A stretch of 64,000 nt of DNA from a virus, in IMG/VR virus record IMGVR_UViG_3300047311_000323, positions 32,001 through 96,000 of that record. The stretch is one strand, 5' to 3'. Under the pieces are notes generated by a model. The model was not told the DNA's origin and did no database searches. It saw only the letters and a list, made by a program, of their open reading frames with translations. Positions 26,648-30,955 of this stretch are shown piece after piece (within the stretch, counting starts at the first letter, position 1; the number at the start of each line of letters is the position of its first letter). A program made the position numbers and the translations under genes.

Positions 26648-27358
26648 TTATCCCTCTTTATGAAATCGGTCCCTAATGGTTATCGTGATGGTTCTTTCTA
26701 CATCTGGATTATCAGCGCTTGCTTTACACCCATCAAATAGTTTCTCTATCAACGAGTCATAACCTTTAGTGGCGACATCGCTCTTAGTGATTTCTAAAGC
26801 TTGCTTAACATCTTTACGAGTAAGATCTTCGTCCTTGGCAAGGATAACTCTAGTTAAATCGGTTTCACTCATTCTTGTCAAATCATCGTGAGTTAAACGA
26901 TATCTAACATTCAACAACTCTTCTAAATAATCAAAACTACCAACACCAGGCTGGTTCTGTGCTGCAAACTCTCCGTCATCAATACCGGTACGCATACCCT
27001 TATCAACTGCTGTCAATAGAATGCGAGCATTGCTGTCCTGCCATTCATGTTCTCTACCGTAAACATTCTTGAGGGCATTAAGTGAGTTACGTAATTTGGC
27101 AAAGTTCTTGACTCGTTGTGCTAGTCCCTCAGAAAGAAACATCTCACTACGGTTATAGTTCTGAAGACCCCTACGTGGATTGTATTCAGTTTCCTGATCA
27201 ATACGACGAGTGTCAAAAGCCATTTTGGTAAAACCTTGGCCAGAAGAAACGGATGCCAAAGCAACTTTTCTAAGTTGCCTGGATTGCTTTCTAGAACTCA
27301 CATTCTGTGAACCCCTAGAAATCAGATTGTAAAGCTCGGTAACCTCTAACAAACTCAT
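26648..27358 (-). CDS. Hypothetical putative head protein
   Basis: GAGGA SD; ATAW-N5-YATW at 27390-27403; contains RKVA and TKMA motifs. Confidence 0.6.
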   Translation of the reverse strand: MSLLEVTELYNLISRGSQNVSSRKQSRQLRKVALASVSSGQGFTKMAFDTRRIDQETEYNPRRGLQNYNRSEMFLSEGLAQRVKNFAKLRNSLNALKNVYGREHEWQDSNARILLTAVDKGMRTGIDDGEFAAQNQPGVGSFDYLEELLNVRYRLTHDDLTRMSETDLTRVILAKDEDLTRKDVKQALEITKSDVATKGYDSLIEKLFDGCKASADNPDVERTITITIRDRFHKEG

Positions 27359-27417
27359 TTTCCTCTGTCTTTTGATAGAACTCTATCATAATGCCCTTTT
27401 ATTACACACCGCGCGCC

Positions 27418-27445
27418 TTGACACGTAATTTTTAAGTTTTAGAGT
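27418..27445 (+). promoter_or_regulatory. Sigma70-type promoter for the CCA-adding enzyme gene
   Basis: Perfect TTGACA at 27418-27423, 16-bp spacer, TAGAGT at 27440-27445; predicted TSS falls at about ATG 27453. Confidence 0.6.
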
Positions 27446-27452
27446 GCCCAGC

Positions 27453-28676
27453 ATGGAACATCTACCTATTTCTACACACCTTATTCACCCACAAGCAATT
27501 GAGGTATGTCGAATCCTAAATCAAAACAACTATCAAGCCTTTATTGTGGGCGGATGTGTGCGAGACCTTCTCCTGGGGCAGACGCCCAAGGACTGGGACA
27601 TCACGACCGATGCTTCTCCTCAGAGAATCATGGAGATTTTCCCCAAGACTATTCCAACTGGCCTGCAACATGGTACGGTAACGGTCTGTATGGGCGAAGG
27701 TGTCGAAAACCACTTCGAGGTTACTACGTTCAGAATCGAAGGCGCATATTCAGACGGTCGTAGGCCCGATGAAGTCACTTTCGTAATGAATGTAGAGCAA
27801 GACTTGGCAAGGCGAGACTTAACCATCAATGCCATTGCTTATGACCCGCTTACCAATGTATGTGTAGACCCTTTTCACGGAATTGAAGACCTCCAACAAG
27901 GTCTAATTAGGGCAGTAGGTAATCCTGCTATCCGATTCCAAGAGGACGGCTTGCGCATCATGCGAGTGGCTCGATTTGCGGCTAGATTTGGCTACCAAGT
28001 AGAAGAAGAAACCATAAAGGGCATGTCAGAGAACCTAGAGACCTTGAAAAGGGTCTCAAAGGAGCGAATTCGAGATGAATTATGCAAGACTCTGATGGCT
28101 AGTAACCCAAATATAGGGTTGCGAATTCTATCTTCAACTGGGGCATTAAAAATAGCTGCTCCATCCTTGCGATTTCACCCTGAAGCTCGTGATTTCCCTT
28201 GGGCCGGTGAGTTAGAGACAAGAATAGCTGTTCTTTACCTTCATCGTCTCCAGGAAGTAGAGGCTGAACTAGAAAGTTTGAAATTCTCTAACCGAGAAAT
28301 CAAGAAAGTTTTACTGCTTCAGGAGCTGTTTGGACGCTGGTGGCGAGCGTCGCATTGGGGCGATTCCGAAGCCTATAAGGTGTTTATAAGCATCATCAAG
28401 AACCGATCCATAGACGACTACCCCTCTACCTTACAGCAATTTATAAGGTTGGGAGAGTCGCTTGGTTACCCCGTTCAAGAATGGCTTAATCTTTATCAAA
28501 ATGAAGTCGTTTTTGCTCGTAAAGAGATGCTGATAAATGGTAATGATTTGATGGAGGCCGGCATGCCTGCTGGTCCTAAATTGAAAATAGCTTTGGATAA
28601 GTGCTATAATGAAATTTTGCTTCATCCCGAGCATAATACCAAAGCTTACTTGCTAGAAGTAGCTAAGCGAGCTTAA
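27453..28676 (+). CDS. cca: Class II tRNA nucleotidyltransferase (CCA-adding enzyme)
   Basis: Motif A VGGCVRD..KDWD, C EVTTFR plus flexible loop EGAYSDGRRPD, B RRDLTINA, D EDGLR, E RVARF, C-terminal INGNDL...GPKLK. Start moved from GTG 27444 to ATG 27453. Confidence 0.93.
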   Translation: MEHLPISTHLIHPQAIEVCRILNQNNYQAFIVGGCVRDLLLGQTPKDWDITTDASPQRIMEIFPKTIPTGLQHGTVTVCMGEGVENHFEVTTFRIEGAYSDGRRPDEVTFVMNVEQDLARRDLTINAIAYDPLTNVCVDPFHGIEDLQQGLIRAVGNPAIRFQEDGLRIMRVARFAARFGYQVEEETIKGMSENLETLKRVSKERIRDELCKTLMASNPNIGLRILSSTGALKIAAPSLRFHPEARDFPWAGELETRIAVLYLHRLQEVEAELESLKFSNREIKKVLLLQELFGRWWRASHWGDSEAYKVFISIIKNRSIDDYPSTLQQFIRLGESLGYPVQEWLNLYQNEVVFARKEMLINGNDLMEAGMPAGPKLKIALDKCYNEILLHPEHNTKAYLLEVAKRA

Positions 28677-29224
28677 TCGTTCTTTGGGGCCTTGGATTTT
28701 ACATCTAGGGCCTTAAAGAGTTTATTATGAGTGCTTCTCAAAAAGTCTTTCTGAGTATCAGATAGCTTGTCTTTATCATTACGCAGTTGCTCATGAATTT
28801 GATGAGATAGTTCTTGAGAGTCTTTAAAGTCTAATGGCATCAACTGCAATTCGAATTGGACGCCATCAATATCTAGATTAACATCAGTTACTCCAGGATA
28901 TTCAAGTCCGCAATCATTGGTATCCTTTTTTTTAGAGTCTTTTACTTGGCCTTTGAATACTTTCTTAAGCAAGTCCACAACTTCTTTAGGATTGTATTCT
29001 TGAGAGAAGAAAAGCCTACCTCTGGCCAAATCTGGAAGGATGCCGGGATCGGATTCACGATCTCGCAGCATTTTCTTTTTGATGCTGAGGTATGGCTTTA
29101 AGTTGGTTTCCAACAGAAAATCATGTGGTGGCAAGTCTGCAAGCTGAGACTGCACGTGCTGCATAGCCTTGTTCAAACTGGGCATGAGGTGCATGTATTG
29201 CTTTCGAAGTTTCTTGGAGTCCAT
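28673..29224 (-). CDS. RelA/SpoT-like small alarmone-synthetase (SAS)-fold nucleotidyltransferase
   Basis: LKPYLSIKKK (RxKxxxSxxxK-like), DLARGR, Y loop, ELQL, ELSH. Start moved to ATG 29224, which follows the ATAW-N5-YATW motif at 29230-29243 and avoids overlap with the HNH gene. Confidence 0.7.
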   Translation of the reverse strand: MDSKKLRKQYMHLMPSLNKAMQHVQSQLADLPPHDFLLETNLKPYLSIKKKMLRDRESDPGILPDLARGRLFFSQEYNPKEVVDLLKKVFKGQVKDSKKKDTNDCGLEYPGVTDVNLDIDGVQFELQLMPLDFKDSQELSHQIHEQLRNDKDKLSDTQKDFLRSTHNKLFKALDVKSKAPKND

Positions 29225-29258
29225 GATTATATGCGGGGTTATAGACAGGCGAGGTTTC

Positions 29259-29936
29259 ATGACTAAATTACGAGATTTAACGGGCCAAAGATTCGGAAGA
29301 TTAATTGTTTTGGAGCGAGGTGAGAATCTATCACGCCCACCTTGTAAATCACATCCTAATGGAAAATCTAGAATCACATGGGTTTGTCAATGTGATTGCG
29401 GTACGATCAAAACAATTTCTGCTGAAAAGTTGTATCACAAAAAGAGCCCAACACGTTCTTGTGGTTGTTTAAACACTGACACTAATAGGGCTAAAGCTTA
29501 CTTAATGCATAAAGCCAATACTAAGTATCATCCTAGTATTGGAACAGCGCGCGGGATCTGGGCTAAAATATACAAAGATGGCCCCGATGGCCTTTCTTTT
29601 GAAGAGTTCTATGATCTTTCTCAAAAACCATGTCATTACTGTGGCTCTAAACCAAACAATTCTCAAAACAGTCCTATGAGTGATAAGTTAGCCTCAGCCT
29701 TTGCTAAAGAAAATGGCACATTTGTATATAATGGATTAGATAGAATAGATAGCACCAAACATCATACATTAGATAATGTAGTACCATGTTGTAAATGGTG
29801 CAATTATGCAAAAAGAGAGCGTACAACAGAAGAATTCAAAGCTTGGGCTAAACGATTACATGACAATTTGTTCATACAAAAAGAAACGGACTCTAATTGC
29901 TTAGAGTCCGTTTCGGAACTTGCTTTAGTCAGTTAA
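29259..29936 (+). CDS. Free-standing HNH homing endonuclease
   Basis: DLTGQRFGRL...WVCQCDCG...SCGC N-domain; CHYCG...GLDRIDS...NVVPCCKWCNYAK core. GAGG SD before ATG 29259. Confidence 0.88.
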   Translation: MTKLRDLTGQRFGRLIVLERGENLSRPPCKSHPNGKSRITWVCQCDCGTIKTISAEKLYHKKSPTRSCGCLNTDTNRAKAYLMHKANTKYHPSIGTARGIWAKIYKDGPDGLSFEEFYDLSQKPCHYCGSKPNNSQNSPMSDKLASAFAKENGTFVYNGLDRIDSTKHHTLDNVVPCCKWCNYAKRERTTEEFKAWAKRLHDNLFIQKETDSNCLESVSELALVS

Positions 29937-29941
29937 GCTTA

Positions 29942-30955
29942 TTAGGCTCCGACGACTACGCTCTTTCTACCAGCGGCACAGCCTCTTGGGTTAACAATGG
30001 CGATACCAATGATTTCGCTAACTACCCAACCCAACTTTAGTTGTTTTGGTTCATCGGCAGGGAGTACTTCAATATCCTGACGGATTGGCATTACTCCTAC
30101 AAATTCTGGATCGGCTACACCGTAGATGGTTCCAGGTGGAACAATCTTGCTGACCATGATGTCAGTACCCCAGATGTGGGCGTATAGACCGGTCTGTAGA
30201 ACTTCTCTCATAGTTACTGGATCGAAGTCACCACCACCAACACCTTGTCCACCACCAGAACCCCACTTGAGGATGTCAGTGAACTCGTTGATGTTCATGA
30301 AGTACTTAGTAGTTACTAAGTCCCAACGATCAATCTGTTGCTTGATTTCGACCAAGTCTCTCTTTAGAAGACCTGCATCGGCGATGTCAGTGAGAGTGTT
30401 CTCAACTGAGGCAGCGGCATCCAAGGCGGCAAAGATGTTTGCATCTTCTTGAGCCATGATTTCCTGACGTGCCTTTTGAACAGCTCTGTCAATGACGTTG
30501 AATCTACGACGCTTGACTTCAGCGATACGAACCGTTGGGTTCGCGTAGATTTCAAACTCTGGAACAACTACACGGTCACCGAATACACGGGACTCTGGAC
30601 CAGTACCGTTGGAAGAGATAACAACTGCGGCAACGTCGATATCTCTATCGTAAGTTGGAATTGCTCCCTGTGGTAGTGGGTCAACAACCAAGGCACGACG
30701 AGCGATACCATGGTAATCGAGGTTTCTACGGATTGGGTTTGCCATAGCCTGAGCTAGAGCAATCTTTCCGTCTTGAGTCATGATTGCGCGAGTGATCAAT
30801 TCATCACGCTTCTCATCGCTCAATGCTGGTTGACCAGCTAGTCCTTGGTTTGCAGGGACATTCTCTTCGAGAATGGCTGCGTACTTTACCAAGGCTTGCA
30901 ATGCATCCTTGAAAGATGAGGCGTTAATTTCGCCCTTGCCGCTAAACATATTCAT
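29942..30955 (-). CDS. Major capsid protein (HK97-like fold)
   Basis: 337 aa, strong AGGAG SD, highly biased codons; pattern DYxGIARR..VVDPLPQGA...ExxxIxIVNPRG; position next to decoration protein and protease. Confidence 0.85.
   Translation of the reverse strand: MNMFSGKGEINASSFKDALQALVKYAAILEENVPANQGLAGQPALSDEKRDELITRAIMTQDGKIALAQAMANPIRRNLDYHGIARRALVVDPLPQGAIPTYDRDIDVAAVVISSNGTGPESRVFGDRVVVPEFEIYANPTVRIAEVKRRRFNVIDRAVQKARQEIMAQEDANIFAALDAAASVENTLTDIADAGLLKRDLVEIKQQIDRWDLVTTKYFMNINEFTDILKWGSGGGQGVGGGDFDPVTMREVLQTGLYAHIWGTDIMVSKIVPPGTIYGVADPEFVGVMPIRQDIEVLPADEPKQLKLGWVVSEIIGIAIVNPRGCAAGRKSVVVGA

Follow-up and report, generated by a model that had tools for sequence, protein, structure and literature searches.

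Work on RelA/SpoT synthetases of phages has until now dealt with toxin-antitoxin or defense modules of prophages (PhRel, CapRel) and with MuF-fused toxins. In the small alarmone synthetases (SAS) RelP and RelQ all ATP-coordinating residues are strictly conserved (PMC5794853). Contacts to AMPCPP in SaRelP involve R78 and R112, which hold the adenine between them, as well as K80, S84, K88 and R91 at the phosphates, while D107 and E174 coordinate Mg and H190 contacts the ribose (PMC5794853). The adenine sandwich made of two arginines (R241 and R269 in RelSeq) is otherwise highly conserved (PMC7983052). Phage small alarmone hydrolases (SAHs) remove the marks set by toxic SAS (toxSAS) from tRNA (bioRxiv 10.1101/2021.04.30.441581; 10.1101/2024.07.05.602228), and both ‘HD-alarmone PDEases’ and CCA enzymes have already been catalogued in jumbo phages (PMC7824862). 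Here we describe a SAS-like gene that follows the major capsid protein (MCP) gene of a huge uncultured phage, tail-to-tail with cca, the gene of a CCA-adding enzyme. It was found in a stretch of 64,000 nucleotides, called the window in the following, which corresponds to positions 32001-96000 of a 198,396-bp IMG/VR phage record (IMGVR_UViG_3300047311_000323; G+C 42.7%). A published description of a stand-alone SAS in lytic huge phages was not found.

We tentatively read the SAS-like protein as a 3'-pyrophosphokinase without antitoxin, which would use an RNA 3' end, likeliest the tRNA-CCA, as acceptor, and cca as independent cargo. The evidence comes from the conserved active site, from the genomic contexts of distant homologs and from a survey of the locus in related phages.

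Fold and predicted active site of the SAS-like protein

Against PF04607 the window SAS scored 16.5 bits (E 0.01), which is under the Pfam gathering score of 27 bits. The same model was matched by 20 of 34 family members at E<=0.1, with a best value of 6.6e-8. Because the curated cut-off is missed, we base membership in the RelA/SpoT group on profile and structure together. The family comprises at least 39 sequence clusters, all of them metagenomic, and its profile matched RelP and RelQ chains in HMMER searches; there were no other sequence-profile matches. NCBIfam had nothing for the protein, and PADLOC returned no family at E<=0.01 for the window SAS or five relatives. An AlphaFold model calculated from the family alignment (predicted local distance difference test score, pLDDT, 92.4) shows the synthetase fold, consisting of a five-stranded sheet and flanking helices. 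Foldseek searches with this model retrieved RelA/SpoT synthetases exclusively, RelQ and RelP being closest. Residues 7-183 align to residues 3-194 of RelQ, so that all 183 residues belong to the SAS fold.

We assigned the SaRelP residues to their phage equivalents from HMMER alignments and identical spacings. Both Mg ligands are kept (D107 as D65, E174 as E125), as is the ribose-binding histidine (H190 as H141). Among the phosphate contacts K80, S84 and K88 are kept as K43, S47 and K51, S47 being nearly invariant, and the equivalent of R91, position 54, is variable. Of the two arginines at the adenine R112 is kept as R70, and R78 is lost and replaced by N41; across the family this position is occupied by N, C, G, A, S, D or K. 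Residues K43, K51, D65, R68, G69, Y109, G111, F124, E125, Q127 and H141 are invariant in sequences sharing 30-91% identity, and the rest of the protein diverges very fast. Since the catalytic residues are invariant despite the fast overall divergence, the active site appears to be a working one, and we regard the protein as a genuine divergent synthetase that is probably active. The half-loss of the adenine sandwich together with the new invariant R68-G69 is the most unusual feature of the family, and R68 might compensate for the lost arginine.

Several of these features had been read from the window by the earlier note, and the family alignment bears them out: the catalytic Asp (D65 in DLARGR) and Glu (E125 in FELQ, followed by Q127) and the putative loop Tyr (Y109) are kept and invariant, and both NLK instead of RxK and the change of RT after ExQ (MP, M129-P130) are found family-wide. 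Y109 is situated in the β3-β4 loop of the model; HMMER instead aligns the canonical G-loop Tyr to L107. The loss of the loop His, also claimed there, applies to the allele group of the window (D114) and not to the family, as most relatives have H114. Alleles are of two types, which differ in a 2-residue indel and in D or H at position 114.

The most variable stretches are residues 52-62, comprising the end of the ATP-binding helix and the next loop, and residues 92-104, comprising β3 and the G-loop up to its middle. Hardly any variation is seen in the first ten residues (MDxKKLRKQY); the family retains a basic N-terminal helix and has a median isoelectric point of 9.0. The protein is most aptly classed as a new SAS subfamily specific to phages.

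Genomic contexts of distant homologs

Distant members of the SAS family with 30-40% identity were found in other phage contexts. In L007 the homolog is located between PNKP (KTI12/AAA_33/HAD_PNKP) and a T4-type RNA ligase 1 (Rnl1), in L108 it lies 61 nt upstream of PTH2, a peptidyl-tRNA hydrolase, and in L110 (35-39% identity) it is again convergent and overlapping with cca. The homolog in L115 adjoins an AAA_33 kinase. Two further homologs belong to T4-like phages: one lies in an early region, 5 kb from a small HAD_PNKP gene and with PurA about 3 kb upstream (L106), the other in a baseplate region with MazG nearby (L116). Altogether, SAS stands beside enzymes acting on tRNA ends in 3 of about 6 independent contexts. 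These neighbors are the sole evidence here that separates the possible acceptors, and they favor an RNA or tRNA 3' end. The connection to tRNA that had been suggested for the window thus gains independent support from the homologs beside PNKP/Rnl1 and PTH2.

SAS and cca as independent cargo

The two genes were described before as a tail-to-tail pair with a shared TTAA, which the open reading frames (ORFs) and stop coordinates confirm, and this pair was interpreted as a locked module. The pairing is shared with other contigs and was seen in at least 15 loci, with SAS identities down to 35-41%. SAS was convergent and overlapping with cca in 3 of 3 initial cases, likewise in most of 20 SAS-anchored IMG/VR loci. 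The 4-nt stop overlap is also present in L001, and overlaps of 6-17 nt are present in L002, L004 and L110.

As sampling anchored on SAS is conditioned on the presence of SAS, the survey was redone from the capsid protein, covering 80 loci of 318 MCP-positive IMG/VR loci. The slot was scored from MCP to g236, a conserved late-cluster gene, in the 62 loci with both borders visible. Counting loci irrespective of kinship, cca alone was the commonest state (28/62), SAS and cca were found together in 15 loci and neither gene in 14, and SAS alone was present in the remaining 5. The SAS-only state is seen in L012, L014, L023/24, L026 and L109. Co-occurrence of SAS and cca is at chance level (Fisher odds ratio 1.5, p=0.57), and removal of near-duplicates left the picture unchanged. 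A hidden Markov model of the SAS family detected no divergent SAS in the gap ORFs of the cca-only loci; these ORFs either lack a Pfam match or encode a LAGLIDADG, methylase or collagen-like protein. The slot also houses HNH and LAGLIDADG endonucleases, a methylase-endonuclease fusion, a collagen-like gene and ORFs of unknown function. In L022 and L026 several homing endonucleases are arranged in tandem.

We also compared the alleles. The correlation of pairwise identities between SAS and cca (rho 0.27) equals that of SAS with any flanking gene, as compared to 0.82 for MCP and g236. Between the window and L009, SAS is 91%, cca 66%, g236 97% and MCP 100% identical; between L009 and L021 the values are 48% for SAS, 82% for cca and 100% for MCP. 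Alleles of cca are only 50-70% identical between phages with 95-100% identical capsid proteins. Over at least 80 metagenomic relatives (L009-L105) MCP is 89-100% identical, and the genes just downstream are 40-90% identical or replaced. The region after MCP is a sharply bounded hypervariable cargo slot.

Whole-record searches, which included positive controls, detected one SAS copy each in G001, G002 and G004 and none genome-wide in the complete relatives G011, G012 and G013. Records positive for SAS and lacking cca contain elsewhere only a remote protein of about 255 aa with a PolyA_pol head (L113:1501-2067; L114:1501-1869), which may be a minimal nucleotidyltransferase. In L025 (2836-3370) the SAS gene is split by a frameshift, and in L048 (2754-2855) cca is intact and only 34 codons of SAS are left beside it; in both, SAS seems to be on its way to loss.

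Chance-level co-occurrence, independent exchange of alleles and the patchy distribution of SAS lead us to consider SAS and cca as independent cargo. The idea of a locked functional module is not supported, nor is that of a toxin which the CCA enzyme would buffer; SAS occurs without full-length cca nearby, and cca is mostly alone. The shared TTAA is a tight packing of two cargo genes. Structure prediction of a complex between SAS and the CCA enzyme resulted in a median score of 0.27 against a mark of 0.32, which gives no evidence either way. The survey also shows that tight convergent overlap in a phage genome is not in itself proof of a functional module.

The CCA-adding enzyme

By sequence, the identification of cca as the gene of a CCA-adding enzyme holds. 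Its Pfam domains PolyA_pol (PF01743, 2.4e-38), RNAbd (PF12627) and tRNA_NucTran2_2 (PF13735) correspond to head, neck and body, and the NCBIfam equivalog NF009814 covers residues 13-405 with 308.4 bits at a cut-off of 290. The motifs GGCVRD, DWD, RRD and EDGLR are invariant in an alignment of 26 sequences, the invariant residues being G33, G34, V36, R37, D38, D47, D49, R120, R121, D122, E164, D165 and R168. The E. coli-type multifunctional CCA protein was rejected as a candidate: NF008137 reached 116.6 bits at a cut-off of 451 and matched the head only, and the C-terminus is of the tRNA_NucTran2_2 type with no HD domain. PcnB and A-adding models scored far under their cut-offs. As a protein cca is a normal representative of a known family, and what is unusual is its genomic setting; identity to the cca of catalogued phages is only 30-42%.

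Twelve tRNA genes are located on the record outside the window (G000:C1:144833-151836 and 197341-198396). The set includes all 4 Thr isoacceptors, 4 Arg, 2 Glu and 2 tRNAs with a CUA (amber-suppressor) anticodon. CCA is encoded in 11 of the 12 genes, the exception being a suppressor at 146813-146887. Because so many of the phage tRNA genes already encode CCA, repair is a likelier task for cca than maturation, and the enzyme would restore damaged tRNA 3' ends. TAG is avoided as a stop codon, being used in only 5 of 208 predicted ORFs of the fragment, and read-through of TAG merged no ORFs, so that the fragment gives no indication of stop-codon recoding. We know of no activity of a CCA-adding enzyme on a 3'-pyrophosphorylated end, hence of no removal of the 3' pyrophosphate by it.

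Phage lineage and the HD_4 hydrolase

CheckV estimates the completeness of the record at about 45%. Its MCP is 54% identical to the counterpart of Bacillus phage G, and complete relatives have genome sizes of 447-481 kb. The phage is a member of a lineage of about 450 kb that is distantly related to phage G; this kinship and the type of cca hint at a Bacillota host. Neither the flagged region nor SAS had a match in 50,697 catalogued phages (blastn, tblastn), and no cultured relative in this collection carries SAS.

An HD_4 hydrolase gene was not found in the 198-kb fragment. It is present in 4 of 4 complete relatives (G001, G011, G012, G013) as well as in G005 and G010, with or without SAS. 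In G001, which is 481 kb in size, HD_4 is located about 150 kb from SAS, and by collinearity it is expected about 15 kb past the end of the present contig. In G001 the gene is part of a co-directional group (L112:45-2600; G001:C1:103071-105626) composed of a PheRS-like gene (tRNA-synt_2d and FDX-ACB), an AAA_33 kinase, HD_4 (L112:1372-2010) and a 197-aa ORF. Kinase and HD phosphoesterase look like an RNA end-healing pair. By analogy with phage SAHs, HD_4 and not cca is a plausible eraser, if SAS has one, acting on alarmones or on tRNA 3'-pyrophosphate.

Gene arrangement and expression signals

The features of the locus are compiled in Table 1.

Table 1. Features of the cca/SAS locus in coordinates of the window.
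Feature	Position	Strand	Basis or remark
g236, conserved gene of the late cluster without assigned function, forming the slot's right border	26648..27358	-	gene order in relatives
cca promoter, sigma70-type (TTGACA, 16 nt, TAGAGT)	27418..27445	+	10/12 consensus matches; conserved in 13 relatives
cca, 407 aa, class II Bacillus-type CCA tRNA nucleotidyltransferase without HD domain	27453..28676	+	ATG start
TTAA, overlapping stops of both convergent genes	28673..28676	.	ORF calls
SAS-like gene, 183 aa, predicted divergent small RelA/SpoT-fold 3'-pyrophosphokinase	28673..29224	-	profile, structure model, residues
GCATATAAT element abutting the SAS ATG, without Shine-Dalgarno	29226..29234	-	GCATAT..ATG kept in 10 loci
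HNH homing-endonuclease gene between MCP and SAS	29259..29936	+	phrog_1035, phrog_374
Intrinsic terminator hairpin of the MCP gene	29883..29914	-	equivalent after MCP stop in relatives
MCP gene, conserved left border of the slot	29942..30955	-	phrog_2522, 2.9e-81

All genes of the block are encoded on the capsid strand save cca, which forms an opposite-strand island with its own promoter. It is divergent to g236 across a shared promoter region of 94 nt (27359-27452) that is highly conserved in relatives. GTG at 27444 is an alternative start of cca. In the TTAA palindrome the TAA of the plus strand (28674-28676) is merged with the complement of 28673-28675 on the minus strand. The SAS gene begins with ATG at 29224, so that the previously given end of the region, 29243, is 19 nt too far upstream of it. 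GTG at 29377 was rejected as a SAS start, being an artefact of the ORF caller that overlaps the divergent HNH gene. This gene is missing in relatives or swapped for LAGLIDADG genes, and the gene upstream of SAS varies or is missing there. An antitoxin or hydrolase is not adjacent, as stated before: the neighbors are cca, the HNH endonuclease and MCP.

It had also been proposed that the two genes have different types of promoter. For cca the sigma70 promoter is real and conserved as TTGACA-N16-TAnnnT with fixed spacing, cca-only loci being among the 13 relatives. Only 7 nt separate its -10 element from the ATG and a Shine-Dalgarno sequence is missing, which leads us to predict a leaderless or near-leaderless mRNA made by host RNA polymerase. 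The proposed late status of SAS, on the other hand, is plausible but found weak support. Where relatives lack the inserted endonuclease gene, about 20 nt lie between the capsid terminator and the SAS start; a conserved GGCATAT-A/T element is all that precedes this start, and a Shine-Dalgarno sequence is missing. In the window GCATATAAT (29234-29226) is the sole upstream sequence left between SAS and the inserted HNH gene, and it may be a late-type promoter element of the phage. The GGCATTATGATAG element before g236 resembles it and a similar element is found at a few other late genes; in g236 a GGCAT-A/T-rich element lies about 25 nt ahead of a strong Shine-Dalgarno sequence. Within the window the 12-mer at the SAS start (TGGCATATAGAT, <=3 mismatches) shows no enrichment (44 observed, 64 expected). 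A looser motif of the GCATWWT type is weakly enriched upstream of genes, with 3/11 and 9/93 as compared to about 5% expected.

Compensatory changes are seen in the stem of the capsid terminator, for example GCCACTAGAG/CTCTAGTGGC versus CCTTCTAGAG/CTCTAGAGGG (L009:7040-7090 and equivalents). Just downstream of cca lies a terminator-like hairpin (28679-28721), but such hairpins are no more frequent than by chance (2 observed as compared to 2.4 expected). As the genes are not separated by a terminator, the cca and SAS transcripts must overlap in antisense. SAS is probably made late and at a low level.

Discussion

Two accessory genes reside independently of each other in one hypervariable slot, which extends from MCP to the next conserved late gene. 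In the reading that we tentatively prefer, SAS would use ATP, or another NTP, as pyrophosphate donor and act on the 3'-OH of a purine nucleoside that stacks on Y109; an RNA 3' end is slightly favored over nucleotides as acceptor. Chemistry of the toxSAS kind would serve a lytic phage as a tool in an arms race and not as part of a toxin-antitoxin system. Removal of the mark would fall to the core HD_4 hydrolase of the lineage, not to cca, which would be read early from its own sigma70 promoter as separate repair cargo.

The phage protein has lost basic residues (N41, MP for RT, variable position 54), in agreement with the smaller basic patch on the acceptor side of the tRNA-targeting FaRel2 (PMC11782079). 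This residue argument is weak, since no sequence signature separates tRNA-targeting from nucleotide-targeting SAS (bioRxiv 10.1101/2021.04.30.441581). The high isoelectric point of the family, its basic N-terminal helix and the setting of HD_4 beside a PheRS-like gene and an AAA_33 kinase also speak for the preferred reading. Several further points weigh against it. The closest structures and the sole profile matches are the (p)ppGpp synthetases RelQ and RelP and not toxSAS. The contexts number only about six, those of L116 and L106 are without a clear tRNA neighbor, and huge phages are rich in translation genes, which raises the chance of adjacency. A general late block of tRNA charging would also harm the phage, and the loss of one adenine-stacking Arg could mean weaker activity or another donor.

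The next most probable account is one that we consider possible, if rather unlikely: the protein would be a nucleotide alarmone synthetase making (p)ppGpp or (pp)pApp from ATP and GDP/GTP or ADP/ATP, with cca as unrelated cargo. Its purpose would be a late reprogramming of host transcription, nucleotide pools or translation, with HD_4 keeping alarmones low earlier in infection. The restriction of profile matches to RelP and RelQ agrees with this, as do the conserved Mg, phosphate and ribose residues and a putative G-loop Tyr; a mild synthetase needs no antitoxin, phage-encoded (p)ppApp synthetases are known (PMC12691689, PMC12226406), and PurA and MazG lie near two of the homologs. However, the ATP-coordinating residues are strict in RelP and RelQ (PMC5794853), while the phage protein has N41 and a variable R91 equivalent, and MP replaces RT after ExQ. 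Recurrent neighbors are enzymes of RNA ends and not of nucleotide metabolism, and a core alarmone hydrolase argues that these phages usually want alarmones low.

An extension of the preferred RNA-acceptor reading, which we hold to be unlikely, is an offensive system of writing, erasing and repair, in which SAS would mark selected host tRNAs at their 3'-CCA. From the phage would come tRNAs with variant acceptor stems (the complete Thr and Arg sets, Glu and the amber suppressors), the core HD_4 as eraser and, optionally, cca for repair. If true, translation would be redirected to the phage, or host immunity that targets tRNAs would be defeated.

It is quite unlikely that SAS is packed in the capsid, is injected with the DNA and acts on either acceptor at the start of infection, as has been supposed for MuF-fused toxins of the Apk2 type. 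The gene is positioned directly after MCP on the same strand within the block of head genes, its first ten residues hardly vary, and phages with a SAS domain fused to the MuF capsid protein have been described (PMC12691689, PMC12226406). The protein nevertheless has no MuF or packaging domain, the SAS fold taking up its full length, and no recognizable targeting peptide cleaved by a protease; homologs in other phages are found among non-structural genes.

An obligate pair of SAS and cca, be it a toxin kept in check by the CCA enzyme or antisense RNA or a timed ‘write then block’ of tRNA 3' ends, is improbable. The recurrence of overlapping 3' ends in many relatives down to the lowest SAS identities, the overlapping transcripts with no terminator between them and the different types of promoter would suit such a pair. 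Against it stand the chance-level co-occurrence, the independently recombining alleles, the existence of SAS-only loci beside the prevailing cca-only state and the records in which only the PolyA_pol-head protein accompanies SAS. As far as we are aware, CCA enzymes do not act on a 3'-pyrophosphorylated end. Least probable of all is a dead or repurposed SAS fold, for instance a binder of nucleotides or tRNA, a sponge or a decoy, as suggested by the lost sandwich arginine and the sub-threshold Pfam scores, because D65, E125, K43, K51, H141 and Y109 are invariant despite very fast divergence.

The locus represents a stand-alone SAS family without antitoxin and with an altered donor site, which occurs in huge phages of lytic type and in T4-like phages. 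Its alleles turn over extremely fast beside an almost invariant capsid gene, and it recurs near enzymes of tRNA end repair. If SAS modifies tRNA, phages wield the same weapon that bacteria use against phages; if it makes alarmones, phages both degrade and produce the signals of the stringent response. [quoted passage not shown]

Comparison with known systems

RelQ (SAS1, PDB 5DEC/5DED) and RelP (SAS2, 6FGK/6EWZ) have the same single-domain architecture and size as the phage protein and share with it the Mg carboxylates, the phosphate-binding K/S/K and the ribose His; Y109 is a candidate for the counterpart of their G-loop Tyr. The phage protein differs from them by an identity of only 12-18%, by Asn or a variable residue in place of the RxK Arg, by a variable R91 equivalent and by ExQxMP instead of ExQxRT. 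It has the invariant R68-G69, and it is phage-encoded, hypervariable and accessory.

With the toxSAS (FaRel2, 8PU4; PhRel/PhRel2; CapRel, 7ZTB) it has in common the frequent carriage by phages or prophages, a rapid diversification, a reduced basic character on the acceptor side and genomic links to tRNA biology. Unlike these, it comes without a cognate antitoxin gene or a fused pseudo-Zn-finger domain, belongs to a huge phage of lytic type, where it is placed in a structural block and not in a defense island, has no PADLOC match and is structurally nearer to RelQ and RelP. From Apk2 (MuF-fused) and Tas1/Apk1 (6OX6) it is distinguished by low similarity and by the lack of a MuF delivery domain and an immunity gene.

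The HD_4 hydrolase of the lineage is similar to phage SAHs such as PaSpo of phage SSU5 and the ‘HD-alarmone PDEase’ of jumbo phages (PMC7824862), but is encoded far from SAS. Closest to cca are the class II CCA-adding enzymes of Bacillota type (NF009814) and the CCA-adding enzymes of jumbo phages, where such genes are known for the restoration of tRNA 3' ends (PMC7824862). Compared to the known enzymes of Bacillota type and of jumbo phages, cca of the present locus stands out as an opposite-strand island among late structural genes, its mRNA being probably leaderless.

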